A DNA stretch of 32,000 bases from Panacagrimonas sp. (GTDB lineage: Bacteria; Pseudomonadota; Gammaproteobacteria; Nevskiales; Nevskiaceae): assembly GCA_052389915.1 (NCBI GenBank), contig JBQTHL010000056.1, positions 15,481-47,480 of the forward strand. Direction: 5' to 3'. The notes under the pieces are model-generated. The model did not search any database, was not told the DNA's origin, and was given only the letters and a program-made list of their open reading frames with translations. Position numbers and translations under genes: made by a program. Positions 12,792-32,000 of the stretch are shown piece by piece (positions within the stretch are counted from its first letter, which is position 1; every line of letters starts with the position of its first letter).

Positions 12792-12805
12792 GGAAGTGCT
12801 CGCCC

Positions 12806-16691: not shown

Positions 16692-16714
16692 TAACGATCC
16701 TTGGTCTTGCGTCA

Positions 16715-16742: not shown

Positions 16743-16883
16743 GGAGAGCGACGAGACTAACGCGACGCTTTACGACTTGACCGCTCGCGGGCGGTCAGAA
16801 CATTGCGTGAATAATTAGAAACGCGGAAATCAGGCTGTCCCGCTCGCGGGCTTTCTGCTTGACGCTTTGAGGCGGAGGCCCCC

Positions 16884-17657
16884 ATGAAAGCCGTAGATGA
16901 TCTCGACAGTTCTGCCTCGGGTGCTTACGGGCTCAGCTCGTCAAAAGAGCAGCACAAGGCCTACGTCCAGGCGGACCTGCTGGTCATCCCCCTGATCGTG
17001 CTGCTGTTCATGGGCATCTTCAGTTTTCACTTCGCCCTGCTCGTCGGCGACTGGGATTACTGGGTGGACTGGCGCGACCGCCGCTGGTGGCCGCTGGTGA
17101 CGCCGCTGGCGCTCTCAGTACTGCCGGGAGTGTTCGGGTTTCTGCTGTGGGACAAGCTTCGTTTGCCGCTGGGCGGGACGCTCACGATCCTGTGCCTGAC
17201 CCTCGCGGCCTGGATCAGCCGCTATCTCAATTTTTATCTGTTCGCGGATTTCCCGATGAACTTCGTGTGGCCCTCGACCTACATCGGGCTGGGTCTGATT
17301 CTGGACTGCATGCTGCTGCTCACTCGCAGCTTCTTCTGGACCGGGCTGTTCGGCGGGTTTGCCTTCGGTCTGCTGATCTACCCGCTCAACTGGTCGATGC
17401 TGGCGCCGTTCCAGGTGCCGTTGGAACTCAACGGCACCATGCTTACTGTGGCCGATCTCATGGGCTACGAGTACATCCGCACGGCGATTCCCGAATACGT
17501 CCGCATCATCGAGGAGTCAACGCTCAGAACCTTCGGGTCAGCGGTGACGCCGCTGACGGCAGTGTTCGCCGGATTCCTGAACATCATGAACTACTGGTTC
17601 TGGCTGTGGATCGGCTACCTGGGTGCCAAGGCACTCTGGATCCGGAAGATCGTCTGA
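16884..17657 (+). CDS. xmoA: Copper membrane monooxygenase subunit A (PmoA/AmoA family)
   Basis: 257 aa. GDWDYWVDWRDRRWWPLVTP, NFVWPST and YEYIRTAIPEYVRIIEESTLRTFG align by eye with PmoA blocks ([40 protein letters not shown]). GGAGG lies at 16874-16878. Confidence 0.95.
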   Translation: MKAVDDLDSSASGAYGLSSSKEQHKAYVQADLLVIPLIVLLFMGIFSFHFALLVGDWDYWVDWRDRRWWPLVTPLALSVLPGVFGFLLWDKLRLPLGGTLTILCLTLAAWISRYLNFYLFADFPMNFVWPSTYIGLGLILDCMLLLTRSFFWTGLFGGFAFGLLIYPLNWSMLAPFQVPLELNGTMLTVADLMGYEYIRTAIPEYVRIIEESTLRTFGSAVTPLTAVFAGFLNIMNYWFWLWIGYLGAKALWIRKIV

Positions 17658-17667
17658 GGGCGCGACC

Positions 17668-18906
17668 ATGAAACTCCTACGTGCTTTTCTGCTTCCGCTG
17701 CTCGCACTGTGCGCGGGCTACACCCCGACGTTGCTGGCGCACGGCGAACGCGCGCAGATGCCGCAGTTGCGCATGCGCACGGTTCACTGGATCGACGTGC
17801 AGGCCTCCGCTTCCAAGCTGGCCATCAACGACATCGTCAAGATCAGCGGCAAGTTCATGCCGTCGAAGTACTGGCCGCACCATGTGAACTCGATCGAGGA
17901 AACGGCCTTCCTCAACATCGGCGTGCCCGGCCCTGCGTTTGTGCGTCTGGACTCGCGCGTCAACGGCGTGCCGATGATCCGCTCCACTTCGTTTCGCAAG
18001 GGCGAGACCTACGATTTCGAGATCACGCTCAAGGCGCGCAAGGTGGGTCGTTATCACGTCCACACCGTCATCAATGTCGAAGGCGCCGGCCCCATGATCG
18101 GCCCCGGCATGTGGGTCGAAGTGGCGGGCGACGAAGCGGCCTTCCAGAACACCGCCAAGACCCTGCTTGGCGAAACCATCGATCTGGAAACCTACGGCCT
18201 GGGCAACGTCATGTTCTGGTCCGCGCTGTGGTTTGCGGTGGGCCTGTCCTGGTTCATTTACTGGCTGACCAAGTGCCCCATCGTCGTGCCCCGCTTCAAG
18301 CGCACCGCAGAACTGGGCGTCGAGGCCGATCAGATGATCACCCCGATGGACCGGCGCATCGGCGGCATCTTCCTGGTGCTGACCCTGAGCCTGATCGTCG
18401 GCGGCTATGTCTACGCCCAGGAAAAATGGCCCATCACCACCCCTCTCCAGACCGGCAAGATCGACGTTCCCCCGCTCGATCAGCCGCCGACCCCGATCTC
18501 CATCAAGCTCATCGAAGCCCGGTACCGTATTCCCGGCCGCAGCTTCAGGATGGAATTCGACGTCATCAACAACAGTGATCGCCAGGTGACCATCGGCGAA
18601 TTCGCCGCCGGCAACCTGCGCTTCATCAACGCCAAGGTGCTCGACGTCAAACCCAAGGACGAGCACGACCTGGTGGCTTCCGATGCCCTGCGCGTGGAAG
18701 GTGGGCCGGTTGCTGCGGGAGCCACTCAGCGCGTCGTGATCTACGCCGACGACGCCATGTGGGAAACCGAGCGCATGACCACCATGATTTCCTCGCCCGA
18801 TGCGGTCGTGGCCGGCGTGCTGTTCTTCTTCGAGGAAGGCGGCAAGCGGCACTTGGTGGAATTTGGCGGCCCCATGATTCCCGACTTCGGTATGAGCAAG
18901 AGCTGA
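17668..18906 (+). CDS. xmoB: Copper membrane monooxygenase subunit B (PmoB/AmoB family), secreted precursor
   Basis: ORF 17623..18906 trimmed to ATG 17668. The signal peptide MKLLRAFLLPLLALCAGYTPTLLA is followed by HGERAQMPQLRMRTVHWID. YHVHTVINVEGAGPMIGPG aligns along its length by eye with M. capsulatus PmoB (HGEKSQAAFMRMRTIHWYD; WHVHTMMNVQGGGPIIGPG). It has two central TM helices and a C-terminal cupredoxin-like half. Confidence 0.95.
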   Translation: MKLLRAFLLPLLALCAGYTPTLLAHGERAQMPQLRMRTVHWIDVQASASKLAINDIVKISGKFMPSKYWPHHVNSIEETAFLNIGVPGPAFVRLDSRVNGVPMIRSTSFRKGETYDFEITLKARKVGRYHVHTVINVEGAGPMIGPGMWVEVAGDEAAFQNTAKTLLGETIDLETYGLGNVMFWSALWFAVGLSWFIYWLTKCPIVVPRFKRTAELGVEADQMITPMDRRIGGIFLVLTLSLIVGGYVYAQEKWPITTPLQTGKIDVPPLDQPPTPISIKLIEARYRIPGRSFRMEFDVINNSDRQVTIGEFAAGNLRFINAKVLDVKPKDEHDLVASDALRVEGGPVAAGATQRVVIYADDAMWETERMTTMISSPDAVVAGVLFFFEEGGKRHLVEFGGPMIPDFGMSKS

Positions 18907-19523
18907 TGATGCGTCGTCTCGCCCGCGTCCTGGTGTTCGGGTCCGCCGTGCTCGCAACCGCGCCTGCAGGCGCGCACGGCGGCGTGTCCATGGAAGACGA
19001 CAATTGCATCATGAAGATCGGTGCGATGACCGCGCATTTCACCGGCTACCAGCCGGAAAAGCGCGCGACGCAGGAGTTCTGCGAAGACATCCCGGAACTC
19101 GGGCGCGCCATCATTGTCATTGACTACGTCAGCGCCGCGCTGCGTCAGTATGAAGTCGAGTTCCGCGTGCTCAGAGATACTAAGGATCTAAAGTCGCGGG
19201 GACGCTACGAAGACCTCGGAACGCCGGCGGACATCGCAGCAGCCACCCTGATCCACGTGCCGCCGCAGGTGTATCCGCGAGGCACGCTGACCTTCGATCA
19301 GGGCTTCGATGCGCCGGGCTGGTACATCGGGATGATCACCGCCAAGGATCCAGCCACCGGCACGTTGTTGCACTCGGTGTTCCCGTTCAAGGTCGGCGTG
19401 CACAGCCTGTGGCGCTACGCCCCCGCCTTCATGATCGTTTTCGCGCTCGCAGGACTGGCTTATCGACTCACCGGTCGCAAGACAGCTACAGCTAAAGCTA
19501 AAGCTAAAGCAAAAGCAACATGA
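18906..19523 (+). CDS. PmoD/AmoD-like membrane-anchored periplasmic protein (putative copper protein; family assignment tentative)
   Basis: ORF 18759..19523 trimmed to ATG 18906, which overlaps the xmoB stop (TGATG). The signal peptide MMRRLARVLVFGSAVLATAPAGA is followed by HGGVSMEDDNCIMKIGAM. After that comes a soluble domain of about 150 aa, one C-terminal TM helix (YAPAFMIVFALAGLAYRL) and a basic tail. This architecture and its position directly after subunit B match PmoD. Confidence 0.65.
   Translation: MMRRLARVLVFGSAVLATAPAGAHGGVSMEDDNCIMKIGAMTAHFTGYQPEKRATQEFCEDIPELGRAIIVIDYVSAALRQYEVEFRVLRDTKDLKSRGRYEDLGTPADIAAATLIHVPPQVYPRGTLTFDQGFDAPGWYIGMITAKDPATGTLLHSVFPFKVGVHSLWRYAPAFMIVFALAGLAYRLTGRKTATAKAKAKAKAT
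19485..19520 (+). repeat. Hexanucleotide tandem repeat: GCTACA (GCTAAA)x3 GCAAAA GCAACA
   Basis: Read directly. It encodes the tail ATAKAKAKAKAT of the PmoD-like protein and runs into the copC ATG (19520). Its codon choice is AT-rich and atypical for this high-GC window. Confidence 0.85.
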
Positions 19524-19900
19524 GGACGCAGTCACCCCGCATGGCTTTTTGGCTACTCATCGCATGCTCGCTCGGCGCTTACGGATCTGCTGTGTTCGCG
19601 CATGCAGGGCTGGTCAGTTCGGAACCCGGCCGGCGTGCAGTGCTGGCCGCGGCTCCGAAAGAAATTAGATTGTGTTTCAACGAAAACGTCGAAGCGAAGT
19701 TTTCCAAGGTCAGCTTGTACAACGCCGATGGCACCGAGATTCCGCTCGGTGAGCTGAAGGCCGACCCGCAAAAGCCCGCCTGTCTGACTGCGTCGGTCGA
19801 TTCGCTGCCCGGCGGAAGCTACACGATCAAGTATCGTGTTCTGTCGGTCGATGGCCATGTCGTGGATTACGGCTACGGGTTCAAATTAAGCCTGCCCTGA
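19520..19900 (+). CDS. copC: CopC-domain periplasmic copper-binding protein
   Basis: 126 aa. The signal peptide ends ...SAVFA and is followed by HAGLVSSEPG (N-terminal His, as in the HxxLxxSxP CopC start). The C-terminal YRVLSVDGHVVDYGYGF carries the D/H ligand block. ATGA overlap with the upstream gene. Confidence 0.9.
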   Translation: MRTQSPRMAFWLLIACSLGAYGSAVFAHAGLVSSEPGRRAVLAAAPKEIRLCFNENVEAKFSKVSLYNADGTEIPLGELKADPQKPACLTASVDSLPGGSYTIKYRVLSVDGHVVDYGYGFKLSLP

Positions 19901-19907
19901 GGCCGGG

Positions 19908-21869
19908 GTGATCGAATTCCTGTCCGCGGCCTCTCGACTCATCGCGACGGCCGGCGCAGCGTGGATCATCGGTTCGACCTGCTTCAGCCTATGGTGCGCC
20001 CGGATGGATCCGCAGCGTGCAGCCCTGCGCGCGGCGCTGCCCCTGCTGATCGCCGTCGGTCTGGTGGTTCTGGGCCATGCCGGCCTGATGTGGACCCAGG
20101 CGCTCTCGCTCGCCCCCCTCGGCTCCGGTTCGACCGATTGGGAAAGCCTGATCAACGGCACCCATGTCGGGCGAGTGTGGCGGATACGCGCCAGCGTCGC
20201 CGTCCTGCTGCTGTTGTCGGCGCTCGTGGCGACGACATGGGGGCGGGCGCGATGGGCTTGCGCCTCGATGGCGGCGACGTATCTCGCGCTCGGACCCTGG
20301 GGTGGACACGCAGCCGGCGCGGAATCGGCTTGGCAGGTGATGCTGCCCAATGTCATCCATGTTCTCGCCATCTCGGTCTGGGTCGGCGCCCTGCCGTCCT
20401 GGTTCGTGGCGGTGCGACGTTTTGCTCGCGCCGATCCGTCCGCGCTGCCCACGCCGGTTCTTGCGGCCGCCCTGGAGCGATTCTCTCGGTTGGCGATGGT
20501 GTTGATGATCGTCATCGTCGTCACGGGCGTCTGGCTGGCGGATCTCTACATCGACACGCAGGGGGACCTGCTGGGGACGCGCTACGGCGCGCTGATTCTC
20601 GGAAAGCTCGGCTTGCTGGCACTTGCGCTGCTGTTCGCCAACCGGTTGCGAACACGGTTTCTTCCCATGCTGAGATCGGCCGGCGAGGCGACTGGTCAGC
20701 GTCGCCTTGCCGCCTCGGCCTTGCGTCATTTCTGCCCTGAACTGGCCGCGGCTTCCGGCGTCCTGATCTGTGCAGCCTGGCTGGCGCAGACCACCCCAGC
20801 ACTGCACGAGCCCGCGCCGAAGTGGTGGCTGCCGTTCCGCTGGTCATTAGACGCAACCTGGCCGGATTCGTCGCTGCGGGTGTGGTTTCTGGCAGCCTTC
20901 GCAGCCTTGATCCTCGCGGGAGCCGCGGCAACCGGCTCGCGACGTAAAACGCTGCGCATTCCCTCAATGCTGTTGGCGGTAGCCGCGACCAGCGTGTTGG
21001 CCTGGGCGTTCGCCGTCCCGGCTTATCCGAATACCTATCGGCGCTCCCAGGTGCCGTATCTGACGCTGTCCGTGGCCGGCGGGCGCGCGCTGTTCGCCGA
21101 GCACTGCACGGCCTGCCACGGCGCGGGAGGACTCGGAGACGGACCGTTGGCAGCGAAGCTGCCGAAGCCGCCGGCAAATCTGAGCGAGCCGCACACGGCG
21201 CTGCATACGGCTGGCGACATGCACTGGTGGCTCACACACGGTATTCCCGAAAGCGGAATGCCCGCCCTGGGTGCTGTGCTCTCCGAGGACGACCGCTGGG
21301 ACCTGATCAACTTCATGCGCGCCTTCTCGCAAGGTTTCGAAAGCCGGGTGCTGCGCGCCCGCGTGGTTCCCGGCCTGGCCTGGCTTGGGGCGATCAATTT
21401 CTACATCGAGGGCGTGCCGGGACCGGGGGAACTCAAGGGCTATCGCGATACACACAATGTCTTGCTGACCTTTCTCGGCGGACCACATGCCGAAGCTCGC
21501 GCGCGAACGCTCGCCGCTGCGATGCCTGAGTTCCAGTCGCGCCGCACGCAGATTCTCGCGGTGCCGTTGGGCGATGTTCGCCTGCCTGCCGACTTGCCTT
21601 ATCCCGTGCTGAGCACCGCCGCTGCCGAGCTCTGGTCCGCCTACGAGTTGCTCGCGCGCACGGTCGGCGACCGCGGCCTGCCGGACCGGCTGGGCATGGA
21701 TTGGACGGATGCGGAATTCCTCATCGATCGTTTCGGCTACGTGCGTGCGCGCTGGATTGCGCAGGACGACCCGGAGGGGTGGACCGACCCCGTCAGGCTG
21801 TACCCGGAACTGGATCGGCTCAATGCCGAACCGCGCTTGCGTCCGCCCCCGGACGATCACATTCACTGA
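19908..21869 (+). CDS. copD: CopD-family membrane protein fused to a c-type cytochrome domain and a C-terminal thioredoxin-fold-like domain lacking CxxC
   Basis: 653 aa with a GTG start 7 nt after the copC stop. The N-terminal ~300 aa are polytopic (CopD-like), followed by two more TM helices. The haem motif is FAEHCTACHGAGGLGDGP (Cys400/Cys403/His404, nt 21105-21119), with GIPESGMPA as the likely axial Met. The C-terminal ~170 aa contains NVLLTFLGG...ILAVPLG...AEFLIDRFGYVRARWI, which resembles the peroxiredoxin/TlpA fold but has no Cys pair. Confidence 0.85.
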   Translation: MIEFLSAASRLIATAGAAWIIGSTCFSLWCARMDPQRAALRAALPLLIAVGLVVLGHAGLMWTQALSLAPLGSGSTDWESLINGTHVGRVWRIRASVAVLLLLSALVATTWGRARWACASMAATYLALGPWGGHAAGAESAWQVMLPNVIHVLAISVWVGALPSWFVAVRRFARADPSALPTPVLAAALERFSRLAMVLMIVIVVTGVWLADLYIDTQGDLLGTRYGALILGKLGLLALALLFANRLRTRFLPMLRSAGEATGQRRLAASALRHFCPELAAASGVLICAAWLAQTTPALHEPAPKWWLPFRWSLDATWPDSSLRVWFLAAFAALILAGAAATGSRRKTLRIPSMLLAVAATSVLAWAFAVPAYPNTYRRSQVPYLTLSVAGGRALFAEHCTACHGAGGLGDGPLAAKLPKPPANLSEPHTALHTAGDMHWWLTHGIPESGMPALGAVLSEDDRWDLINFMRAFSQGFESRVLRARVVPGLAWLGAINFYIEGVPGPGELKGYRDTHNVLLTFLGGPHAEARARTLAAAMPEFQSRRTQILAVPLGDVRLPADLPYPVLSTAAAELWSAYELLARTVGDRGLPDRLGMDWTDAEFLIDRFGYVRARWIAQDDPEGWTDPVRLYPELDRLNAEPRLRPPPDDHIH

Positions 21870-21887
21870 AACACTCAGGAGACAACC

Positions 21888-22388
21888 ATGCAACGATCCC
21901 CCGCTCTTTTTATTCTCGCGCTGCTCGCCAGCAGCGTATCGCTTGGCGCGCGGGCAGGCGGCGACGCGGCGCACGATCACCATCAGCATCACCAAGGGCA
22001 CGGACAACACCCGGCCGATGGCGCGGCGGGCAAGGGTGCCACCGAGGTTCCACCGCTGCGCATCCTGTTTCCCGAGTCCGGCGCCAAGGTCGGGACGCAG
22101 CTTGCCGTGGTGTTCGAAACGCCCGGCGAAATGGCACGGCTGACCATGAGCGCGCCGGTGGTGGGTACTCATCTGCATATCGAAACCGACGGTATTTCCC
22201 TGATGCCGAGTGAGAACCAGCTCATCCGGCTCGGTGGAAACCGTTACGTGTTCGTGTTCGACCTGCCGGTCAGCGCGGGCGAGCGCAGCCTGCGGGTGTA
22301 TTGGTCGGATGGCATGCACCGGACCATCGATTCGAGCATGCAGACGGTCAAGGTGATCGTCGAGGGCGCGATCAGTCCTGGAAAGTGA
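21888..22388 (+). CDS. Secreted His-rich protein, DUF4399-like (putative periplasmic metal binding)
   Basis: 166 aa with AGGAG RBS. The signal peptide MQRSPALFILALLASSVSLGARA is followed by the His cluster HDHHQHHQGHGQH (nt 21972-22010). The blocks VGTHLHIETDG and GERSLRVYWSDGMH resemble the DUF4399 GHHHL..D / GEH.L.L...D..H pattern as I remember it. Confidence 0.6.
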   Translation: MQRSPALFILALLASSVSLGARAGGDAAHDHHQHHQGHGQHPADGAAGKGATEVPPLRILFPESGAKVGTQLAVVFETPGEMARLTMSAPVVGTHLHIETDGISLMPSENQLIRLGGNRYVFVFDLPVSAGERSLRVYWSDGMHRTIDSSMQTVKVIVEGAISPGK

Positions 22389-22611
22389 AGTAGGAAGGGA
22401 ACGGCGGCAGGAGAATCCTGTCGCGCGCCTGCGCGTCCGACGCTTCGCAGGTCGACGCTGATCGCTTGCGCACGGCGTCCACCGCCCGAGCGCGTCCACG
22501 AGGCAGGCACCCGCTGGTCGGGGCGCTTCGCCCGCCGGTCCGAACTGGCATCAATCCAATCTATTCCCGGTATGATGTTGTTCTAACAAACATTTGGTAT
22601 GGAGAGTAAGG

Positions 22612-25110
22612 ATGTTTTGGAGTAGGTCTGCATGTCGCTGGTCAATCATTCCTGCGTTGCTGCTCGCAGGGCCGGCCGCGAACGCCGTCGAGTACGACTT
22701 CTCGGCAGGAGGCTTTGATTTTTCGTCAGTGTTGAACAATACCCTCACGCTTGGCGCTGCGTGGAGAATCGAGGGTCGATCAAATGATCTGGTCGGCAAG
22801 TCCAACCTCGATCCCGGGGTTTGTTCCGGTCCCTACCAGTCCTGCCAGGGCCTGCACCGCCTGCAGAACTTTCCCGCCCAACGGCTGGCGTCTGCGCCGG
22901 GTATGGCCTCCATCAACTTCGACGACGGCAATCTCAACTACAACAAGGGCGACATCATCCAGGCGCCGCTCAAGCTCTCGCAAGACCTTACCGTCAGCTT
23001 CGGAGACTACGGCATCTTTGTTCGAGGACTTGGCATTTTCGACCAGGCGAACTACTTCGACTTCCGCAATTTCTACCCCAACCAGATCACCGCCGAGAAC
23101 GTTGGCAGCGTGGGTATTGTCGGCAGCCCGACGTCCAACCGGTACCTGCCGCGGGTGTACGGTCCTGGGGCTCCGGTTCGCAGTGACCGGGCGGAAGACG
23201 AGGCGCAAGAAATCGGGCTCAGATACGACCTGCTCGATGCCAATTTCTACGGGAGTCTGCCTTTTGTCGGCGAACGCGAACTGACCTTTCGGCTCGGCCG
23301 GCAGACAGTGAATTGGGGCCAGAGCACGGTCGCGGTCGTCAACAGCGTCAACCAGGCGCAGCCGGTGAACGCGAACAGCCTTTACCGGCTCGGTTTCGGT
23401 CTGCTGGAGGAGCTCTTCGTCCCGGTGGGCATGGCGCGCTTCAGCACAGAACTGGTGAACGACGTCGGCGTCGAGATCTACTACCAGTACGAATGGGACC
23501 CGGTCGAGATTCCGACGCCTGGCAGCTACATGTCCTTCGTCGACATCGGTACCGACAATCTGCGCGGTACGGTCAACGCGGCGTTCGGTGGCGCGGCGGA
23601 CGACCCCGATCACGTCGGTGCGCCGCTGGACAACCCGCTCACCCTGATCACGCCAACCACCTTGACCCTGGATCGGCGCGGCGACAACGAGGCCCGCGAC
23701 CAGGGCCAGTACGGCATCGGCCTGAAGTATTACGCCGAGGAACTCAATAACGGCACCGAGTTCGCGGCTTACTTCATGAACTACCATTCGAAGCTGCCGT
23801 ACGTGAGTTTCTATTCCACCGATCCCAGTTGCGCCCGTCGCGAGGGCAGTTCCCGGGGCATCGACGCCACGAACACTCTCGAATTCCTGGCCGGGTGTCC
23901 AAACCTACCGGTCACCGCGCCGTCGGCGTCATCGCAACTGGCTCTCGATCTGGTCACTCTGGCGGCACAGAGGCCGGGCGCGCTCGCTGATCTGGGCGCC
24001 GGGACATTGGACCTGGGAGCCATTCTGGGCGGCGTGGGCGGACTATTGCTGCCGCAGCCTGGTCAGCAAATCAGTGACGCCGTGCCGCTGGACACGGCCC
24101 AGATCCAGCTCGAATACCCCGAAGACCTGAAGATGTTCGGGTTCAGCTTCACCACCACCGCTGGCGAGCTGTCCCTGCAGGGCGAGCTGTCCTACCGACC
24201 GAAACTTCCGCTGCAGGTTGCCCTGATCGATCTGGCCTTTGCCTCCTTCGGTCCCACTCTGACCCGCTGCCACGACCGGAACCTGGGTTGCCTGGGCGCC
24301 TCTGCGGGACTCGGGTTCAACGAGGCGGGGAGCTACGTGGTCTACGACGGCAACAACTTCACCGACGCCAGCGGCAACAACCCCTACCCTGATGCAATCA
24401 ATCTGGTCGTGGGCGCGGCGCCGGGTTCGGCGCGTTCCTTTCCCAACTTCATCGTGCCCTACCGCGGCGGTGTGGTAGGCGAGAATCCGCCGAACAGCTA
24501 CATCCGCGGCTGGATTCCTGGAAAGGTGGCGCAGTACAACTTCGGAGCGACGCAGGTGCTCGGCCCGAACGAGAACTGGATTGCTGCGGACCAGGTGATC
24601 CTGCTCTACGAACTGGCGGCAACCCATGTGCTCAACATGCCGGATTTCGACAAGCTGCAGATCGAAGGCCCGCTGACGGCGACCACGCACGCCAGCGCCG
24701 GCGCCGATGGCAGTGGTGCGGATGGATCGCGCCTAGCCTGTTCGACCAATCCCTCGTGCTCGGTGGGTCCGGACGGACTGCGCTTCAACCCTTACCAGGC
24801 ACCGCGTAGTGCATTCGCCGATGCATTTTCCTGGGGCTATCGCATCGTTGGGCGCATCGCCTACGAGTCGGTGTTCCCTTCGATCAGCATCCAGCCGTTG
24901 TTCATCTGGTCACAGGACATCGGTGGCAACTCGCCGGGACCGGCCGGCAATTTCGTGGAAGGCCGCAAGACCCTGAACTTCCTGCTGGAAACGCGCTACG
25001 GGAAGTCCTACTCGTTCACTATCGCCTACAACAGTTTCTTCGGCGGCGGTAAGGACAACCTTTACGAGGATCGCGACAACCTCGGCTTTTATGTCAAGTA
25101 CCAGTTCTGA
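22612..25110 (+). CDS. DUF1302-family outer-membrane beta-barrel protein
   Basis: ORF 22594..25110 trimmed to ATG 22612, with GGAGAG at 22601-22606. The signal peptide ends ...LLLAGPAANA. LTLGAAWRIEGRSNDLVG and INFDDGNLNYNKGDIIQAPLKLSQDL are typical DUF1302 N-terminal blocks. The C-terminus ...LGFYVKYQF ends in an aromatic residue, as OMP signatures do. Confidence 0.8.
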   Translation: MFWSRSACRWSIIPALLLAGPAANAVEYDFSAGGFDFSSVLNNTLTLGAAWRIEGRSNDLVGKSNLDPGVCSGPYQSCQGLHRLQNFPAQRLASAPGMASINFDDGNLNYNKGDIIQAPLKLSQDLTVSFGDYGIFVRGLGIFDQANYFDFRNFYPNQITAENVGSVGIVGSPTSNRYLPRVYGPGAPVRSDRAEDEAQEIGLRYDLLDANFYGSLPFVGERELTFRLGRQTVNWGQSTVAVVNSVNQAQPVNANSLYRLGFGLLEELFVPVGMARFSTELVNDVGVEIYYQYEWDPVEIPTPGSYMSFVDIGTDNLRGTVNAAFGGAADDPDHVGAPLDNPLTLITPTTLTLDRRGDNEARDQGQYGIGLKYYAEELNNGTEFAAYFMNYHSKLPYVSFYSTDPSCARREGSSRGIDATNTLEFLAGCPNLPVTAPSASSQLALDLVTLAAQRPGALADLGAGTLDLGAILGGVGGLLLPQPGQQISDAVPLDTAQIQLEYPEDLKMFGFSFTTTAGELSLQGELSYRPKLPLQVALIDLAFASFGPTLTRCHDRNLGCLGASAGLGFNEAGSYVVYDGNNFTDASGNNPYPDAINLVVGAAPGSARSFPNFIVPYRGGVVGENPPNSYIRGWIPGKVAQYNFGATQVLGPNENWIAADQVILLYELAATHVLNMPDFDKLQIEGPLTATTHASAGADGSGADGSRLACSTNPSCSVGPDGLRFNPYQAPRSAFADAFSWGYRIVGRIAYESVFPSISIQPLFIWSQDIGGNSPGPAGNFVEGRKTLNFLLETRYGKSYSFTIAYNSFFGGGKDNLYEDRDNLGFYVKYQF

Positions 25111-25123
25111 GGTGCGGACGCGG

Positions 25124-25144
25124 GCAGTGGTCAGTTTCCACTGC
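25124..25144 (+). terminator. Weak hairpin after the DUF1302 gene (GCAGTGG-TCAGTTT-CCACTGC)
   Basis: A 7-bp stem 14 nt after the stop. There is no U-tract, so terminator function is uncertain. Confidence 0.25.
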
Positions 25145-25160
25145 GCGGAAGCGCGAGCGA

Positions 25161-25190
25161 TGGAAAGGCAAATCGCAATGTGCGTATACT
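25161..25190 (+). promoter_or_regulatory. Putative promoter of the TonB2-type operon (TGGAAA - 18 nt - TATACT), overlapped by the shared 12-mer and an inverted repeat
   Basis: The hexamers were read by eye (4/6 and 5/6 to consensus). GCAATGTGCGTA (25175-25186) overlaps the spacer and the -10. AATGTGC (25177-25183) and GCACATT (25197-25203) form a 7-bp inverted repeat with a 13-nt spacer. Confidence 0.3.
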
Positions 25191-25309
25191 CACTCTGCAC
25201 ATTTAAAAGAGACTTCGAGCCGGCCTGAGAGGGATCCGTGCATTGAAGTTTCGATCAGTGCGGTGGCTTGCCACCGCGCGTTTGTCGGCGGGGAGGAGTC
25301 CCCTGGAAC

Positions 25310-26092
25310 ATGATCGTATTCCCAAAGTGGAAGGCTGTCGCCGCGCGGATGCTCGGCCTGTCGCTGGCGGTTGCCGTGCCCTGCGCGCCGGCTCAGGACG
25401 CTGCCGGCAAGGCGCTGGACGCGGTGGTCGATGGCAACCGCGCCGCGAGAACGTCCCAGCAGAGGGTCGATAGCCTCGACGATCAGACCAAGTCCATGCT
25501 CGAGCGCTATCGCGCCGCGAGCTGGCAGGCGCAGCAACTCACGGTCTATGCCAAGCAGCTCGGCGAACTGGTGTCCGCGCAGGAGGGCGAACGCAGCTCG
25601 ATCGAGCGTCAGATCACCGAGATGGAGCGCACCGAGCGCGAGCTGCTGCCGCTGATGCTGCGCATGGTCGAGGGGCTGGAGAAATTCATCGCGCTGGACC
25701 TGCCGTTTCTGGCGACCGAGCGCCGCGAGCGGCTGGACACGCTGAAGAAGCTCATGTCCGATCCTGAGGCGAACAACGCCGAGAAGTTCAAGCGCCTTCT
25801 GGAAGCCTGGCAGATCGAATCGGAGTACGGACGTTCGATCGGCACCGAGCGCGCCGAGGTCGAGGGCCGCACCGTCGATGTGCTGCGTCTGGGGCGCACG
25901 GCGCTGTACTACCTGTCGGCCGATGGCAAGCAGGCGGGAACCTGGAACAGCAGCAGCGGCGCCTGGGAGGCACTCCCGCATCAGCACGTCGCTCAGGTGC
26001 GGCATGGCCTGCGCATGGCGCGGGAAACGGCCGCGCCGGATCTGCTGAGGTTGCCTGTCGCTGCCGCCGCTGCGGCCGGAGCCGCGCCATGA
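25310..26092 (+). CDS. DUF3450-family periplasmic coiled-coil protein (TtpB-like TonB2-system component)
   Basis: ORF 25268..26092 trimmed to ATG 25310, with GGGAGGAG at 25291-25298. It has a signal peptide and a long coiled coil. The blocks ELLPLMLRMVEGLEKFIALDLPFL and EKFKRLLEAWQIESEYGRSIG are typical of DUF3450. ATGA overlap with the next gene. Confidence 0.8.
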   Translation: MIVFPKWKAVAARMLGLSLAVAVPCAPAQDAAGKALDAVVDGNRAARTSQQRVDSLDDQTKSMLERYRAASWQAQQLTVYAKQLGELVSAQEGERSSIERQITEMERTERELLPLMLRMVEGLEKFIALDLPFLATERRERLDTLKKLMSDPEANNAEKFKRLLEAWQIESEYGRSIGTERAEVEGRTVDVLRLGRTALYYLSADGKQAGTWNSSSGAWEALPHQHVAQVRHGLRMARETAAPDLLRLPVAAAAAAGAAP

Positions 26093-27477
26093 GGCGTGAC
26101 TGCGCATTCTGGCGCGGGCTCATCGCGGCGGCGTTGATGCTCGGCACCGGCACCGGCGCCTTGCACGCGCAGGCGCCTTCGCCCTCGCAGAAAGGCATGG
26201 ACGAACTGCTCAAGCAGATCCGCCAGGGGACGCAGGAGGCCGCCAAGCTCAACGCAGAACGCGAGCAGCGTTTCCTGCGCAACAAGAACGAGCAGGCCGC
26301 TTTGCTGGCCAAGGCCGAGGCGGATCGCGCTGCCGCCGGCGCGCGGGCCGATCAGGCAAAAGCGCAATTCGCGGCCGGCCAGGCCCAGATCGCCGAACTC
26401 AAGAAGCGCCTGACCGAGCGCCTGGGCGACAGCGGGCAGATGTATGCGGCGATCGCGCAGTCCGCCGGCGAGTTCCGCAGCCAGATCGCCGGCTCGCTGG
26501 TTTCGGCGCAATACCCGGATCGCGCCGAGTTTCTGGATCGCATCGCACAGGCGGGCGAGGTGCCGGGCGTGGCCGACCTGGAGCAGCTCTGGTTCCTGTA
26601 CGCACAAGAGGCCGCCGAGAGCGGGCGGGTGGTGCGCTTTCAGGCCGAGGTGCTCGATGCCTTGGGAGAAAAATCGAAGACCGAGGTGATCCGGGTGGGC
26701 CAGTTCACGGCGCTGACCGAAGAGGGCTATTTGACCCTGCAAGCCGGGACCGCAGCGCTCGCACTGCTGCCGCGCCAGCCCGACGGCAATTCGGGACTCG
26801 TCGAGGATTTCAGCGCGGCGGGCGAGGGCTTGCACACGGTGCTGATCGACCCCTCGCGCGGCGACCTGCTGCGCAAGATCGCCGAGCGGCCCACCACGAT
26901 GGAGCGCATCCATCAGGGTGGCGAGGTGGGCTACGTCATCATCGCCATCGGTGTGATCGGCGCGGTGCTCGCGGCCTACCAGTTCGGGTACCTGCTGCTG
27001 GTGGGTGTGAGGGTGCAGCGGCAGTTGCGGGACGTGGCGCAGCCGCGCGAGGACAATCCGCTGGGTCGCGTGCTCGCCAGCCTGAAGATCGACGCCACGC
27101 AGGATCCGGAAGTGCTGGAGACGCGCCTGTCCGAGGCGGTGCTGCGCGAGACGCCCAAGCTGGAGCGATTCCAGTCGCTGCTGCGCATGATCGTCGCTGC
27201 GGGTCCGCTGCTGGGCCTGCTCGGCACGGTGATCGGCATGATCATCACCTTCCAGGTCATCACCGAGGTCGGTGCGGGCGATCCCAAGCTGATGGCCGGT
27301 GGCATCTCGCAGGCCATGATCGCGACGGTGCTCGGCCTGATCATCGCTATCCCCTTGCTGTTCGTGAACAGCTTCCTGATGACCCGTTCGCGCAGCATCA
27401 CGCAGGTTCTCGACGAGCAGGCCGCCGGGCTGCTGGCGCAGCGCCTGGAAGCGGCAGGCGGGCGCCAGCATGCTTGA
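26089..27477 (+). CDS. Long MotA/TolQ/ExbB-family proton-channel protein with large N-terminal periplasmic coiled-coil domain (TtpC-like)
   Basis: 462 aa. The C-terminal channel block is AAGPLLGLLGTVIGMIITFQ...GGISQAMIATVLGLIIAIPLLF. The N-terminal ~270 aa are extra-membranous and coiled-coil-rich. Confidence 0.85.
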   Translation: MRRDCAFWRGLIAAALMLGTGTGALHAQAPSPSQKGMDELLKQIRQGTQEAAKLNAEREQRFLRNKNEQAALLAKAEADRAAAGARADQAKAQFAAGQAQIAELKKRLTERLGDSGQMYAAIAQSAGEFRSQIAGSLVSAQYPDRAEFLDRIAQAGEVPGVADLEQLWFLYAQEAAESGRVVRFQAEVLDALGEKSKTEVIRVGQFTALTEEGYLTLQAGTAALALLPRQPDGNSGLVEDFSAAGEGLHTVLIDPSRGDLLRKIAERPTTMERIHQGGEVGYVIIAIGVIGAVLAAYQFGYLLLVGVRVQRQLRDVAQPREDNPLGRVLASLKIDATQDPEVLETRLSEAVLRETPKLERFQSLLRMIVAAGPLLGLLGTVIGMIITFQVITEVGAGDPKLMAGGISQAMIATVLGLIIAIPLLFVNSFLMTRSRSITQVLDEQAAGLLAQRLEAAGGRQHA

Positions 27478-28009
27478 GCTGATCGTCCAGTCGTTCACGG
27501 AGCAGTACGACACGCTCGGCGAGTTCCTCGATGCGGGCGGCTGGGTGACGCGCTGGATCCTCGCGGCCTGTGCCGTCCTGCTCACCGTCGTGTTCGAGCG
27601 CCTCTGGTATCTGTGGCGCATCTATCCGCGCGTGCGTGCCGCGACCCTAGCCGGGTGGAACGCGCGCAGCGAGCGCCACTCCTGGGTCGCGCACCGCATC
27701 CGCACGGCGCTGATCAGCCAGTTGCGCATGGGCCTGGAATCCGGCCTGCCCATCATCAAAGTGATGGTGCCGATGGCGCCGCTGCTCGGCCTGCTCGGCA
27801 CCGTGATGGGCATGCTGCAGGTGTTCGACGCGATGGCCTTCAGCAAGGGCGGCGACACGCGCGCGATGGCCGACGGCATCTCGCACGCGATGATCGCGAC
27901 CATGGCCGGGCTGGTGGTGAGCGTGATTGGGCTGTTCTTCAGCAACCTGTTCGCCTCGCGGGTGCGGGTTGAGTCGGAACGGCTGAATGATTTGATTGCG
28001 CCGGGCTGA
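27470..28009 (+). CDS. exbB: MotA/TolQ/ExbB proton-channel protein
   Basis: 179 aa. Contains MAPLLGLLGTVMGMLQVF...DGISHAMIATMAGLVVSVIGLFF. It overlaps the upstream gene by 8 nt. Confidence 0.9.
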   Translation: MLELIVQSFTEQYDTLGEFLDAGGWVTRWILAACAVLLTVVFERLWYLWRIYPRVRAATLAGWNARSERHSWVAHRIRTALISQLRMGLESGLPIIKVMVPMAPLLGLLGTVMGMLQVFDAMAFSKGGDTRAMADGISHAMIATMAGLVVSVIGLFFSNLFASRVRVESERLNDLIAPG

Positions 28010-28016
28010 TGCGCAC

Positions 28017-28421
28017 ATGAAATTCCGCCGCCACAACCCGCCTCCCGAAGACACCGGCATCGACCTCGCGCCGATGCTCGACTTCGTGATGAACCTTCTG
28101 ATCTTCTTCATCATCGCTGCGGCCTTCGTGCAGGAGTCCGGCATCCGCGTGAACAAGCCGGCCGCGAAGACCGCGCAGCAGGAGGACAAGACCAGCATCT
28201 TCGTCGCCATCTCGGCGACCAATGAGATCTGGATCAATCGCGAGCGCGTCGACATCCGCCGCCTGCGCACCGAAATCGAACGCGTGCGCCGCGACAAGCC
28301 CAAGGCCGTGGTCGTGATCCAGGCCGACCAGGACGCGCGTGCGGGGCTGATGGTGGAAGCGATGGATCAGGCGCGGCTGGCCGGCGTGCCGGACGTGTCG
28401 ATCGCGGCGACACCGAAATAG
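28017..28421 (+). CDS. exbD: ExbD/TolR biopolymer transport protein
   Basis: ORF 27996..28421 trimmed to ATG 28017. Contains IDLAPMLDFVMNLLIFFII (TM helix with the conserved Asp), then ...VVIQADQDARAGLMVEAMDQARLAG. Confidence 0.9.
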   Translation: MKFRRHNPPPEDTGIDLAPMLDFVMNLLIFFIIAAAFVQESGIRVNKPAAKTAQQEDKTSIFVAISATNEIWINRERVDIRRLRTEIERVRRDKPKAVVVIQADQDARAGLMVEAMDQARLAGVPDVSIAATPK

Positions 28422-28424
28422 CGC

Positions 28425-29153
28425 ATGAACGCCCTGGCACAGAACCGCGGACCGCGCTGGCTGGTGCTGCCGGTGCTGGGCCTGCTCGCGACGGTGCTGC
28501 TGTTCCTGGTGCTGGGCTGGATCATCCGGGGGGATGAAGGCGAGGGGCTTGGCCCCGAGCGACTGCTCGACCCGGTGGACATCGTGCGCAACGAACCGCC
28601 GCCGGTGGAGCCGCCGAATCCGCTGGAAGCCCTGGACAACTCGCCGCCGCCGCCGCCCGCCGCCCCGCCGCCGATGGGCCGCCCCGATCTGCCGGCGCTG
28701 GACGTGCCGAGCCTGGCCCTGGACCCCAGCGCGATCGGCAACATCGTGGTGCCGGTGGCGCTGGGCGAGACCGGGCGTGCGCTGGGCAAGGTCGGCAGCT
28801 TTGGCGGCTTCGGCAGTGGACGCGGGGGGGCGGGCACGGGCAGCGGGCTGGGCGGCACCGGCAAGGGCGGCTGGAAGGGCAAGCCGCTGGTGCCGCTCTC
28901 GACCGCGCGGCCGCAGATGCCGGACTGGGCCTGCAAACAGAAGCTCAGTGGCTGGGTGGAAGCAATTTTCACCGTGATGCCGAACGGCCGGGTGCAGGAC
29001 GTGAAGATCGTCGAGGCCGATCCGCGCGGCGTGTTCGAGGCCGCGGCGGTGGAGAGCATTTCGCAATGGATTTACGAGCCCACCGGCAAGGCCGCCGAGG
29101 TCAAGCAGCGCGTGCCGATGAATCATGAAGACTGTGCGTACAACTGGCGCTAG
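28425..29153 (+). CDS. tonB: TonB-family energy transducer
   Basis: 242 aa. It has an N-terminal anchor helix, a Pro-rich spacer (EPPPVEPPNP...SPPPPPAAPPP) and a Gly-rich segment. The C-terminal TonB domain reads SGWVEAIFTVMPNGRVQDVKIVEADPRGVFEAAAVESISQWIYEP. Confidence 0.88.
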   Translation: MNALAQNRGPRWLVLPVLGLLATVLLFLVLGWIIRGDEGEGLGPERLLDPVDIVRNEPPPVEPPNPLEALDNSPPPPPAAPPPMGRPDLPALDVPSLALDPSAIGNIVVPVALGETGRALGKVGSFGGFGSGRGGAGTGSGLGGTGKGGWKGKPLVPLSTARPQMPDWACKQKLSGWVEAIFTVMPNGRVQDVKIVEADPRGVFEAAAVESISQWIYEPTGKAAEVKQRVPMNHEDCAYNWR

Positions 29154-31788
29154 ACCGGACGCGCATGCGCGCGCCGTTCCAATTCGGCGGGTTCAATCCG
29201 ACGTGGAGTCGCGAGAGCGACGACGGCGCGGCTTGAACCACCGGCTTGCGCCCGGACTGTTCCTCCTTTTCGCCAGTGGTGCCCACGCCGATCAGTACCG
29301 CAGCGAGGTCCACGAGATTGCGCCGCCTCCGGTCCAGACCCAGGCGGTGGATCTCGCCGCGCTGCTCAAGTCCACCACCGATCCCTACGAGCGCGCGTTG
29401 CTGCTGCGCGAACTGGGCGGAGCCGCGGCAGGGCGCAAGGATTACAAGGAGGCCCAGCGCCTGCTGCAAGAGGCGCTCGCACTCAAGTCGCTCTCCGGTC
29501 CTGCGGCGGAGATGATGAAGAAGGATCTGGCGGCGCTGGCCCTGGCCACGGGCAATATCAAGGACCAGATTCCCCTGCTGGAATCCATCGTCAAGTCCGG
29601 CAATGCCAGCCCCGAAGTCCTGGTCGCGCTGGGCGCCGCCTACGTGCAGAACAAGCGCTTCAGGGACGCCATTCCGCTGCTCAAGCAGGGCATCGCGGCG
29701 TCGACCCGACCCGACGTGAGCTGGCGCATGACCCTGATCGCCGCCCTGATTGGCGCCGGCCAGTACGCCGAGGCGGCCAGGCCGCTCGAACAGGTGCTGC
29801 GCGAAGACCCGGCGCAGCGCGAGTCCTGGCTGCAACTTGCGGCCCTGTACCTCAAGACCGGCAACAAGGAGCGCGCGCAGGCGGCCATGGAAATTGCCAG
29901 CCGCCTGGGTTATCTCAACGATGCCGCAGACCGGCTGCGGCTGGTTACGCTCACCGGGCAGATCGGCGCGCCGTTCGAGGCGGCCTCCCTGTTGCAGGGC
30001 TGGATGGGCGCCGGGCAGGTGCCGAAGAACCTGGACAACCAGAAGCTGCTCGCCGCGCTATGGGTGCGCGCGCGCGAAAGCCGGCTGGCGCTGGCGGTTC
30101 TGAACGAACTGGCCGCAGCGCGCCCGAGCCGCGAGCTGTACGAACAGATGGCGCAGCTCCATCTGGAGCGCCAGGATTACGAGCGCGCGGCGCAGGCCAT
30201 GTCGCAGGCGATCCAGCTCGGCGGCAAGTCCGGCGTGGTGCTGATGAGCCTCGGGCTTGCGCGCTACCAGTTGGCCGACGTGGATGGTGCGATAGAGGCT
30301 TTCCGCGAGGCCACCGCGTTCGCCCCGCAGAAAAAGATCGCGCAGGACTGGCTCAAATACCTCCAGTCCGGACAGGCGCGCGAACAGGCGCTGGCCGCGG
30401 CCGTCACCGCCGTGCGCTCGGACTCCGACGAGATCGCGCTCAGCTCGCGGCTGCTCGGTGGCGGCGTGGTGTTGGCCTCCGGAGCGGAGAGCGGCCGCGC
30501 CATCGGCGGCCGCGCGCGCGCCACCGGCGAACTGACGCCCGTCGGCGCCGAGCGTGACGGCAACGCCGAAGGCACCATCCCGCCCTGGACCGGCGGGCTC
30601 ACGCCCTCCCAGTGGCCCGCCGGCTTCAAGAAGGGCGGGCGGCTGGTGGATCCCTATCCCAACGACCGACCGTTGTTCACCATCACGGCGGCCAATGCGG
30701 ACTCGTATCGAGGGATGCTGTCCAAGGGCCACCAGGCCCTGCTGGCGGCCCATCCGGGCTATCGCATGCCGGTGTACACCAGCCGGCGCGGGGTGGCGTA
30801 TCCACAGGCGGTCTACGATGCGAGCCAGGCCAACATCGGCCGCGCCAAGCTGCTGGGTTCCGACGCGCTCGAAGGAGCGAAGCTGGGGTTTCCCTTCCCC
30901 AAGCCGGAAACCGGCGTGGAGGCCATGTGGAACCACCGCGTGCGCTACCGCGGCAATACCGTGGCCCTGCAGAGCCGGCAGGTCGTGCTCAATGCCGGGG
31001 GCAAGGAGACCCAGAGCGCGCGCGTCAATGAAAGCGCGTATTTCCGCTACGGCAACACCGCCGACCCGGTGGACATCAACACGCAGAACATCCTGCTGTA
31101 TTACTTGCTGCGCTTTACTGGCGTGGGGCTGTCGCGCTTCGTCGCGCTGGCGCACGAGACCGCCAATTCGGAGAAGGACGCGCGCGCGATCTGGGTGGCG
31201 CCGCCGGGTTCGCCCAAGCTGTTCCGCATTCCGCCGGTGGGTTACGACCAGCCCTTCCCGGGCACCGAGGCGATGTACTTCGTCGACATGATCGACATGT
31301 ACAACGGCCCCTTCGACCGCTACGTGTGGAAGCTGGTGGGCAAGCGCGAGCTCTACCTGCCGTACAACGGCTACCGGCTGTCCGATGGCAGCCAGAAATA
31401 TGCGCAGCAGCTCACGCCGCATTTCTTCAACCCGGCTAATACGCGCTATGAATTGCACCGGGTGTGGGTGATCGAGGCCAGCGAGCGCGGCGGCAAGAGC
31501 CACAGCTTCGGCCTGCGCGTGTTCTACATCGACGAGGACAGTTGGAACGTGGTGCTGGTCGAGAATGAGGACCGCCAGGGCAGGCTGTGGCGCTTCCAGG
31601 AAGGGCACCTGCTGCCGCTGTACGACGCGCTCGCCGCCAACAGCTTCCCGGTCATCACCTACGACCTGAAGGACGGACGCTATTACGCCAACCGCCTGCT
31701 GTCCGAGGAGCCTCCGCCGCAGTACGACCTCCGCATGGACGTGGGTGACTTCCTGCCGGCGACCGTCGCCACAAAGTACCTGCGCTGA
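29125..31788 (+). CDS. Fusion protein: N-terminal TPR-repeat domain (TtpD-like) + C-terminal DUF1329 (LolA-like outer-membrane lipoprotein-sorting-like) domain
   Basis: One continuous 887-codon ORF. The start is uncertain. ATG 29125 overlaps tonB by 29 nt. In-frame GTG 29203 or TTG 29233 would place the signal-peptide-like NHRLAPGLFLLFASGAHA at the N-terminus. TPR-like helical repeats span about 29380-30400. The DUF1329 hallmarks are LTPVGAERDGNAEGTIPPWTGGL (from about 30529), PLFTITAANADSY and GFPFPKPETGVEAMWNHRVRYRG. Confidence 0.8.
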   Translation: MKTVRTTGARPDAHARAVPIRRVQSDVESRERRRRGLNHRLAPGLFLLFASGAHADQYRSEVHEIAPPPVQTQAVDLAALLKSTTDPYERALLLRELGGAAAGRKDYKEAQRLLQEALALKSLSGPAAEMMKKDLAALALATGNIKDQIPLLESIVKSGNASPEVLVALGAAYVQNKRFRDAIPLLKQGIAASTRPDVSWRMTLIAALIGAGQYAEAARPLEQVLREDPAQRESWLQLAALYLKTGNKERAQAAMEIASRLGYLNDAADRLRLVTLTGQIGAPFEAASLLQGWMGAGQVPKNLDNQKLLAALWVRARESRLALAVLNELAAARPSRELYEQMAQLHLERQDYERAAQAMSQAIQLGGKSGVVLMSLGLARYQLADVDGAIEAFREATAFAPQKKIAQDWLKYLQSGQAREQALAAAVTAVRSDSDEIALSSRLLGGGVVLASGAESGRAIGGRARATGELTPVGAERDGNAEGTIPPWTGGLTPSQWPAGFKKGGRLVDPYPNDRPLFTITAANADSYRGMLSKGHQALLAAHPGYRMPVYTSRRGVAYPQAVYDASQANIGRAKLLGSDALEGAKLGFPFPKPETGVEAMWNHRVRYRGNTVALQSRQVVLNAGGKETQSARVNESAYFRYGNTADPVDINTQNILLYYLLRFTGVGLSRFVALAHETANSEKDARAIWVAPPGSPKLFRIPPVGYDQPFPGTEAMYFVDMIDMYNGPFDRYVWKLVGKRELYLPYNGYRLSDGSQKYAQQLTPHFFNPANTRYELHRVWVIEASERGGKSHSFGLRVFYIDEDSWNVVLVENEDRQGRLWRFQEGHLLPLYDALAANSFPVITYDLKDGRYYANRLLSEEPPPQYDLRMDVGDFLPATVATKYLR

Positions 31789-31819: not shown

Positions 31820-32000
31820 TCAATCGAGCGGGGCTTCCCCGACAGACGCGCATTCGAGCTTCAGGCGGGATTCGATGTCATCCGCCAGCAGCCGCTCAAC
31901 GATGCCGCCGACCAGGGGAATGCCGCAGGTCAGTGTCCAGTCGGACACCATGATCGTCCCTTCCGGGGACGCTTCCAGGCGCGCTCTGGATACGGCCTTG
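31820..32000 (-). CDS. C-terminal end of an unidentified protein (possibly SRPBCC/DUF2505-like; very tentative), gene continues beyond the right edge
   Basis: My translation of the minus strand is open from 32000 to TGA at 31822-31820: ...KAVSRARLEASPEGTIMVSDWTLTCGIPLVGGIVERLLADDIESRLKLECASVGEAPLD*. It is convergent with the TPR-DUF1329 gene. Not in the ORF track because there is no start in the window. Confidence 0.4.
   Translation of the reverse strand, partial: KAVSRARLEASPEGTIMVSDWTLTCGIPLVGGIVERLLADDIESRLKLECASVGEAPLD

Follow-up and report, generated by a model that had tools for sequence, protein, structure and literature searches.

In Vibrio the tetratricopeptide repeat (TPR) protein TtpD is essential for the function of the TonB2 system, and DUF1302 and DUF1329 form a widespread outer-membrane module that is tied to hydrophobic-substrate metabolism. 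The TonB2 operon of V. vulnificus and V. anguillarum encodes TtpB (DUF3450, 255 aa), TtpC, ExbB, ExbD, TonB2 and TtpD (TPR, 425 aa) (PMC6957404). Fitness data are available for a four-gene module of DUF1302, DUF1329, BNR and RND (MMPL) genes in Shewanella (Sama_1588-1591) and P. putida (PP_0765/PP_0766 with PP_2018/PP_2019) (bioRxiv 072470; bioRxiv 2020.07.04.188060). Members of the DUF1302 family have been described as 18-stranded, Occ/AlgE-like barrels, and AlphaFold-Multimer predicts a DUF1302-DUF1329 complex for the P. aeruginosa homologues with an ipTM of 0.84 (PMC13499233). The literature we searched makes no link between DUF1329 and TonB2 or TtpD. Here we describe a stretch of 32,000 nucleotides from a Panacagrimonas sp. 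metagenome-assembled genome (MAG) (Nevskiaceae, Nevskiales), hereafter the window, in which genes for DUF1302, DUF3450/TtpB, a long ExbB-like TtpC, ExbB, ExbD, TonB and a TPR::DUF1329 fusion protein follow each other on the plus strand (22612-31788). Its DUF1302 protein is identical to NCBI MGQ0700227.1 (P0121, 100% match) and the fusion protein is MGQ0700233.1, encoded on the same contig six genes further on.

We read this locus, with a probability of roughly 60%, as two modules independent of each other: a general TonB2 energiser that includes the TtpD::DUF1329 adaptor, and a passive channel that belongs to an upstream island encoding a copper membrane monooxygenase (CuMMO). A first-pass annotation of this DNA had seen in it a DUF1302/DUF1329 pair split by the insertion of a TonB2 machine. 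The gene order on which that annotation was based stands, every call being backed by the Pfam scans of six-frame open reading frames (ORFs) from which genes were called. The insertion does not: TtpD carries DUF1329 throughout the order, also in TonB2 operons without a nearby DUF1302 gene, and the apparent split pair is therefore better seen as two modules side by side.

Pfam places TPR repeats at approximately aa 90-430 and DUF1329 at aa 519-870 (2.6e-100) of the 887-aa ORF that encodes the fusion, and the DUF1329 domain is complete (profile positions 1-353 of 368). An AlphaFold2 model based on 41 sequences (pLDDT 81) has a TPR solenoid of about 21 helices (residues 51-403), a disordered linker (399-441, pLDDT below 50) and a well-defined alpha/beta domain (445-861). 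Foldseek ranks P. gingivalis LolA3 (9tp6, TMt 0.83) closest to the latter domain, with the lipoprotein-sorting-like domain 3bk5 of V. parahaemolyticus and the DUF1329 protein 4z48 of D. piger among the other near structures. The consensus N-terminus of the homologues is a signal peptide, which in the window ends between ASGAHA and DQYRSE and is followed in the consensus by an invariant motif of the DQYRSE type, so the protein is predicted to be periplasmic.

The TPR half was compared by phmmer with 1.84 billion representative sequences, a word-indexed search having returned fragments of the fusion family only. Approximately 13 of the clusters retrieved consist of proteins of 840-885 aa, which are fusions, and over 100 consist of unfused TPR proteins of 395-430 aa that align near end to end (query residues ~25-365). 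One of the latter, P0269 (424 aa), is encoded by the last gene of a DUF3450-TtpC-ExbB-ExbD-TonB cluster. On these phmmer matches to unfused proteins the N-terminal half of the fusion is identified as TtpD. Full-length fusion homologues (~845-890 aa) number at least 165 in Panacagrimonas, Hydrocarboniphaga, Solimonas, Nevskia and Fontimonas, and the fusion also occurs in Algiphilus (Algiphilaceae) and Spectribacter (Salinisphaerales). By this distribution we judge the fusion to be older than the split between Nevskiales and Salinisphaerales; it is undescribed in the literature searched.

Eight fusion loci outside the CuMMO-bearing sublineage were compared with the window (L001-L006, L098 and L099), from Nevskia ramosa, an ENA MAG, P. 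perspica DSM 26377, a Panacagrimonas MAG, Algiphilus, Spectribacter, Solimonas aquatica and Hydrocarboniphaga effusa. In every one of them the fusion gene is the last of a complete TonB2 operon, and none has a DUF1302 gene within 10 kb of it. Full gene tables were at hand for N. ramosa, the ENA MAG, S. aquatica and H. effusa, and all four have a rhodanese gene on the opposite strand at the upstream side; it is the immediate neighbour of ttpB in the ENA MAG (L002) and H. effusa, and in N. ramosa and S. aquatica it lies one or two genes further off. The otherwise conserved operon of N. ramosa contains a Na+/H+ exchanger gene that separates tonB from the fusion gene (L001 8748-9995). In H. effusa (L099 15373-16725) and Algiphilus (L005 14786-16036) the fusion is followed, at a distance of about 2-3 kb, by an orphan standalone DUF1329 gene with no DUF1302 gene nearby. 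The H. effusa copy comes after an ABC1 kinase gene, in a fusion-ABC1-DUF1329-DUF2505 neighbourhood that N. ramosa shares except for DUF1329.

The converse comparison covered 76 standalone-DUF1329 loci from many phyla, the 10-kb neighbourhoods of which were searched by tblastn with the window's own proteins. DUF1302 was present within 10 kb in 70 of them and immediately upstream in about 68, in line with the annotation's statement that the two genes are normally adjacent. Of the 76, 75 have no detectable TonB-system genes and a single one has ExbB-like genes, with the caveat that tblastn from window proteins may miss very divergent TonB genes. The fused DUF1329 domain moreover shares only ~40% identity with the standalone DUF1329 that partners the orthologues of the window's barrel, which speaks against a split pair as well.

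That barrel is predicted not to be a TonB-dependent receptor. An AlphaFold2 model from 46 sequences (pLDDT 84, pTM 0.85) shows barrel strands from residue 26, right after the signal peptide, a helical insert at 422-478 and no plug. Foldseek ranks OccAB1, AlgE, DcaP and general porins first (TMt ~0.5), TonB-dependent transporters (TBDTs) reaching a TM-score of ~0.25, and Pfam gives no match to PF07715 or PF00593. The model leaves no free N-terminal extension that could bear a TonB box; the N-terminal segment that the annotation had put forward for docking to TonB is the first barrel strand and is not lineage-specific.

Orthologues of the barrel at 72-78% identity sit in operons of AlkB-rubredoxin, MMPL, DUF1329, DUF1302, BNR and fatty-acid-desaturase-like genes accompanied by an AraC gene (L085, L086, L087, L089), and the expected link of the family to hydrocarbon and lipid loci is thus borne out. 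The L086 operon (4449-14481) consists of an AlkB-rubredoxin fusion, MMPL, DUF1329, DUF1302, BNR and a second desaturase-like gene with AraC divergent, and judging from its gene order it ties the four-gene DUF1302 module directly to alkane hydroxylation in Nevskiales-like genomes. In Solimonas flava (L015) a standalone DUF1329 gene adjoins a 75% orthologue of the window's DUF1302. The window itself has no standalone DUF1329, nor MMPL or BNR genes as searched by tblastn with the L086 proteins. Orphan DUF1302 genes are also found elsewhere, for instance beside fadA/fadB (L091). AupA/AupB, considered as relatives of DUF1302/DUF1329, were discarded as AupA is FadL-like (PMC5989066).

The adjacency of DUF1302 and the TonB2 operon appears to be a trait of one CuMMO-bearing sublineage, since it is seen only in the window and in three further places. 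The order CopD-(orf166)-DUF1302-DUF3450-TtpC-ExbB-ExbD(-TonB), preceded by the island block, recurs in L088 (DUF1302 90% and AmoA 95% identical to the window, collinear with window 12677-28368), in L102/L103 (DUF1302 85%) and in L104 (86%, without orf166); an 83-kb NCBI contig probably carries both DUF1302 and fusion genes as well. Below ~80% identity of DUF1302 the barrel is again found in alkB-type operons, and below ~76% identity of the fusion the TonB2 operon is without a neighbouring barrel. Synteny by tblastx was too noisy in this high-GC DNA and was used only for the L088 collinearity and for L002 and L003, where only the TonB2 genes match the window. The stretch from AmoB to the start of DUF3450 is reproduced at 100% identity in two independent Logan assemblies (L083, L084), so the DUF1302-ttpB junction is no assembly artefact or chimera.

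DUF1302 is flanked by spacers on both sides, 223 nt upstream and 199 nt downstream, and the latter separates it from ttpB. A promoter scan finds in this downstream spacer the sole sigma-70-like match of the 10-kb region, TGGAAA-18-TATACT, which lies within the element GTGC(G/A)TATACTC(A/G)CT..GCAC; the element is conserved in the four lineages and the rest of the spacer has diverged. A sigma-54 reading of the TGG...GC in the spacer was rejected, the spacing being GG-N11-GC and not N10. No rho-independent terminator was found after DUF1302 in the window, which has only a weak hairpin (z -1.1) and no T-tract terminator. L088 has a perfect GC-rich hairpin of ~17 bp directly after the DUF1302 stop (12499-12543, -41.8 kcal/mol, z -7.2), which could be a terminator or a repetitive extragenic palindrome (REP)-like element, and by eye L102 has a similar inverted repeat. 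Relatives without the island have another conserved sequence upstream of ttpB, TGGATTTTAGCG...GGGCAAGATGC, so that the ancestral ttpB promoter region seems to have been replaced.

Table 1. Features of the window, numbered from its first nucleotide.
Feature	Position	Strand	Description
12-mer GCAATGTGCGTA	15766-15777 and 25175-25186	+	xmoC and ttpB upstream regions
CuMMO island	15849-22388	+	xmoC to orf166; Pfam AmoC/AmoA/AmoB homologues
xmoC	15849-16691	+	
xmoA	16884-17657	+	
xmoB	17623-18906	+	
orf203	18912-19523	+	203 aa; right after xmoB, 4-nt overlap with copC start
copC	19520-19900	+	
copD-cytochrome c	19908-21869	+	CopD with C-terminal cytochrome c domain, 653 aa
orf166	21888-22388	+	Secreted, 166 aa; His-rich stretch DAAHDHHQHHQGHGQH
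DUF1302	22612-25110	+	Outer-membrane barrel, 832 aa; PF06980 E 1.6e-151; ORF open from 22594; last gene of the CuMMO island
Spacer DUF1302/ttpB	25111-25309	+	TGGAAA-18-TATACT at 25161-25190; conserved element ATGTGCGTATACTCACTCTGCACA at 25178-25201
ttpB	25310-26092	+	DUF3450 periplasmic coiled-coil, first gene of the operon; PF11932 E 2.3e-77; ORF open from 25268
ttpC	26089-27477	+	Long ExbB paralogue, 462 aa; C-terminal MotA_ExbB domain aa 333-442
exbB	27470-28009	+	ExbB, 179 aa; MotA_ExbB PF01618 E 2e-25
exbD	28017-28421	+	ExbD, 134 aa from ATG 28017; PF02472 E 1.7e-27; ORF open from TTG 27996
tonB	28425-29153	+	TonB, 242 aa; TonB_C aa 163-232, PF03544 E 1.5e-11
ttpD::DUF1329	29233-31788	+	Fusion, MGQ0700233.1, 851 aa; ORF open from ATG 29125 (887 aa)
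Fusion, TPR solenoid	~29353-30411	+	
Fusion, disordered linker	~30397-30525	+	
Fusion, LolA-like DUF1329	~30535-31785	+	

By gene order and domain content the six genes from ttpB onwards are identified as a TonB2-type system of Vibrio architecture (Table 1), as the first-pass annotation had stated; both the published six-gene operon (PMC6957404) and the cluster of P0269 agree with it. The likeliest start of ttpB is ATG 25310, which has a Shine-Dalgarno sequence, GGGAGGAG, at 25291-25298. TtpC is 79% identical to its P. perspica homologue, ExbD is 134-137 aa long in homologue gene calls, and TonB has an N-terminal transmembrane segment, Pro-rich and Gly-rich spacers and the TonB_C domain. The tight coupling claimed for all six genes holds from ttpB through tonB, with overlaps of 4 nt (ttpB/ttpC) and 8 nt (ttpC/exbB) and gaps of 7 nt (exbB/exbD, with the ExbD start at ATG 28017) and 3 nt (exbD/tonB). 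It probably does not extend to the fusion gene, which overlaps tonB by 29 nt only if started at ATG 29125; the homologue consensus and the NCBI model favour TTG 29233 or GTG 29203, which leave a gap of 49-79 nt. The fusion gene closes the operon, as a convergent minus-strand ORF comes next. That ORF (31825-32000) runs off the end of the window and is DUF2505-like, with 33-50% identity over 32-45 aa to genes that follow the fusion in L099 and L001 but sit on the opposite strand relative to the arrangement in the window; this hints that the window's TonB2 copy may keep part of the ancestral downstream flank.

The annotation's observation that the window encodes no plug-plus-barrel TBDT is correct, no large ORF of the window having a Plug or TonB_dep_Rec domain by Pfam. 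It carries no information, since TBDT genes are also missing from the TonB2 loci of the four relatives for which full gene tables were at hand. Nor was a Fur-box-like site found in the window, including the spacer for which this had been noted, or in the relatives' regions (best match 10-11 of 19 positions; 10 of 19 in the window).

The island that ends with DUF1302 is conserved as a block. The CopD-cytochrome c fusion is kept in all related islands (L083, L088, L102, L104), and orf166 lies between copD and DUF1302 in L088 and L102/L103 and is absent from L104. Neither orf203 nor orf166 has a Pfam match at E up to 5 or an NCBIfam match; in the NCBIfam scan only the model of the TonB C-terminal domain exceeded the cut-off, so that DUF1302 and DUF3450 are unnamed too. 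Its position suggests that orf203 is a PmoD/AmoD-like accessory protein, and orf166 probably serves the island as a periplasmic copper-binding accessory protein. A TetR regulator is encoded on the plus strand near the start of the window. Divergent from xmoC, the minus strand holds a dense block (4370-15548) with genes for four acyl-CoA dehydrogenases, an aldehyde dehydrogenase, a MaoC hydratase and an SCP-x-type thiolase; genes for a hydrolase and a methyltransferase are on the minus strand upstream of the island as well. From 12677 on (thiolase, aldehyde dehydrogenase) the block is collinear in L088, which suggests a locus for a complete hydrocarbon-to-acyl-CoA pathway.

Under the two-module reading, ttpB-ttpC-exbB-exbD-tonB-ttpD would be the Nevskiales form of a Vibrio-type TonB2 system, read from its own promoter in the spacer, and would most likely turn proton-motive force into outer-membrane work for plug-type TBDTs encoded elsewhere. 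The fused DUF1329 domain, on its flexible tether of ~45 residues, may act as an outer-membrane-proximal anchor or as a module for hydrophobic ligands. DUF1302 is the terminal gene of an xmoCAB-orf203-copC-copD-orf166-DUF1302 island, and its barrel most likely lets the hydrophobic compound that the monooxygenase pathway consumes or produces pass the outer membrane; it would do so with a DUF1329 partner supplied in trans. The adjacency would date from the arrival of the island immediately upstream of ttpB in one Panacagrimonas sublineage, where it displaced the ancestral promoter region.

Several observations weigh against this reading. DUF1329 has no known or predicted partner other than the DUF1302 barrel, and a fusion of DUF1329 to TtpD across the order therefore argues for contact between TonB2 and DUF1302 proteins. 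The adjacency is kept in four lineages, with DUF1302 85-90% identical, which could reflect selection. The upstream regions of xmoC and ttpB have the 12-mer GCAATGTGCGTA in common, the first copy, at 15766, preceding the TTGACT -35-like hexamer of xmoC by ~20 nt; of 500 shuffles, 2 reached a common substring of this length. L088 keeps the 12-mer at 3101 and 12555 and has AATGTGCGTA conserved upstream of its xmoC, and across all lineages the core of the shared motif shrinks to ~7 nt. The 12-mer may be a site for a common regulator, with (A/G)TGTGCGTA as the putative binding sequence in both upstream regions, a weak sign of co-regulation. Finally, a second fusion, P0006 (MGQ0700838.1), is probably encoded in the same MAG, which would leave room for the window's copy to be a dedicated paralogue. 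P0006 is 72% identical to the window's fusion and in a neighbour-joining tree falls in the core Panacagrimonas clade, apart from the clade of the window and P0001; its accession is ~600 numbers from those of the window's proteins, and it is assigned to the same MAG on this closeness. One possibility is that the window's operon is a second, island-linked paralogue; another is a mixed bin.

In a rival explanation that these points favour, the DUF1329 domain of TtpD would link the TonB2 motor to plug-less DUF1302 barrels, the neighbouring one among them, and so energise the uptake or surface handling of hydrophobic substrates for the CuMMO without a TBDT. It generalises the proposal of the first-pass annotation, and we hold it to be a tentative and on balance unlikely account. 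It draws on the presence, across the order, of a TtpD fused to a complete, LolA-like DUF1329 domain, on the predicted binding of DUF1329 to DUF1302 (PMC13499233) and the usual adjacency of their genes, and on the fact that the window's DUF1302 is without its usual standalone partner; the persistent adjacency, the motif in common with the xmoC promoter region and a possible second, island-linked copy of the cluster would fit it too. Against these stand a barrel without plug, N-terminal extension or lineage-specific N-terminus, the absence of DUF1302 near the fusion operon in all eight other loci, and a spacer that parts DUF1302 from ttpB with its own promoter-like element, together with hairpins in some lineages. 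Canonical DUF1302/DUF1329 modules, moreover, go with MMPL/RND pumps and not with TonB systems (bioRxiv 072470).

In its furthest form this explanation would make TonB2 of Nevskiales and Salinisphaerales, physically tethered through TtpD's DUF1329 to plug-less DUF1302 barrels, a receptor-less outer-membrane translocon for hydrophobic compounds driven by proton-motive force, with a possibly duplicated copy, xmoCAB-type control and a dedicated barrel in the CuMMO sublineage; we regard this as distinctly unlikely. The domain logic of the fusion and the conserved adjacency speak for TonB-energised transport through a receptor-less barrel, whereas the architecture of the barrel and the distribution of the fusion speak against it.

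It is improbable that the arrangement is mere coincidence, a rearrangement breakpoint having fallen upstream of ttpB and the DUF1329 of TtpD having a role unrelated to DUF1302, such as binding acyl chains of lipids or lipoproteins. The upstream flank indeed shows no synteny with other Panacagrimonas loci, acyl-chain carriers of the LolA type are structurally closest to the domain, and Hydrocarboniphaga and Algiphilus have the orphan standalone DUF1329 genes without a nearby DUF1302. The arrangement nevertheless persists over ~10-15% protein divergence, and the idea overlaps with the two-module reading, from which it differs only in denying any DUF1302-contact role. Most improbable is a role in copper supply, in which the TonB2 operon, under control of the CuMMO island, would power the import of copper, or of a copper chelator, via a TBDT from another locus, alongside CopC, CopD and orf166: the position of the cluster after copC, copD-cytochrome c and the His-rich secreted 166-aa protein, the replaced ttpB promoter region, the motif in common with xmoC, the missing Fur box and the existence of TonB-dependent copper receptors, mentioned in a passage of bioRxiv 072470, are in its favour, but the window has no TBDT or chalkophore genes, the shared motif is down to a 7-nt core across all lineages, and the operon is kept in relatives without an adjacent CuMMO, including S. 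aquatica, whose reported CuMMO gene, of unknown function (PMC6215863), does not adjoin its TonB2 operon.

The order-conserved TtpD::DUF1329 fusion offers one hypothesis for both proteins, with TtpD as an outer-membrane-proximal adaptor and DUF1329 as its docking or lipid-binding unit. If this were true, TonB-type energisation would reach beyond plug-type receptors, which bears on how insoluble substrates pass the outer membrane of hydrocarbon degraders; if there is no such link, what remains is an ordinary TonB2 operon beside a CuMMO island.

Among known systems the Vibrio TonB2 operon is equal to the window's six-gene cluster in gene order and domain content, with DUF3450 first, a TtpC of ~460 aa and a terminal TPR protein with signal peptide. 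It differs in that the window's TtpD is longer by a linker of ~45 residues and a LolA-like DUF1329 domain of ~420 residues, in that the window's cluster has no Fur box and no sign of iron regulation or siderophore linkage, and in that the operon in this sublineage adjoins a CuMMO island. LolA/LolB-like carriers (9tp6, 3bk5, 4z48) have the same fold as the C-terminal domain of the fusion (TMt 0.73-0.83), but they are free whereas this domain is tethered to the TPR scaffold of a TonB2 complex. Occ/OprD channels and AlgE, 18-stranded outer-membrane barrels, are the best structural matches of the window's DUF1302, though at TM-scores of only ~0.5, and DUF1302 is larger (~830 aa), with large extra loops and the helical insert. 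With TBDTs of the FepA/FhuA type it has in common that an outer-membrane beta-barrel is encoded beside a TonB system, but it has neither their Plug and 22-strand barrel nor their N-terminal extension with TonB box. With the four-gene module linked to hydrophobic substrates, finally, the window shares the barrel, which is a full-length member of the DUF1302 family with orthologues in exactly this module, next to alkB; the only DUF1329 near it in the window, in contrast, is that of TtpD, a distant relative of the usual partner.

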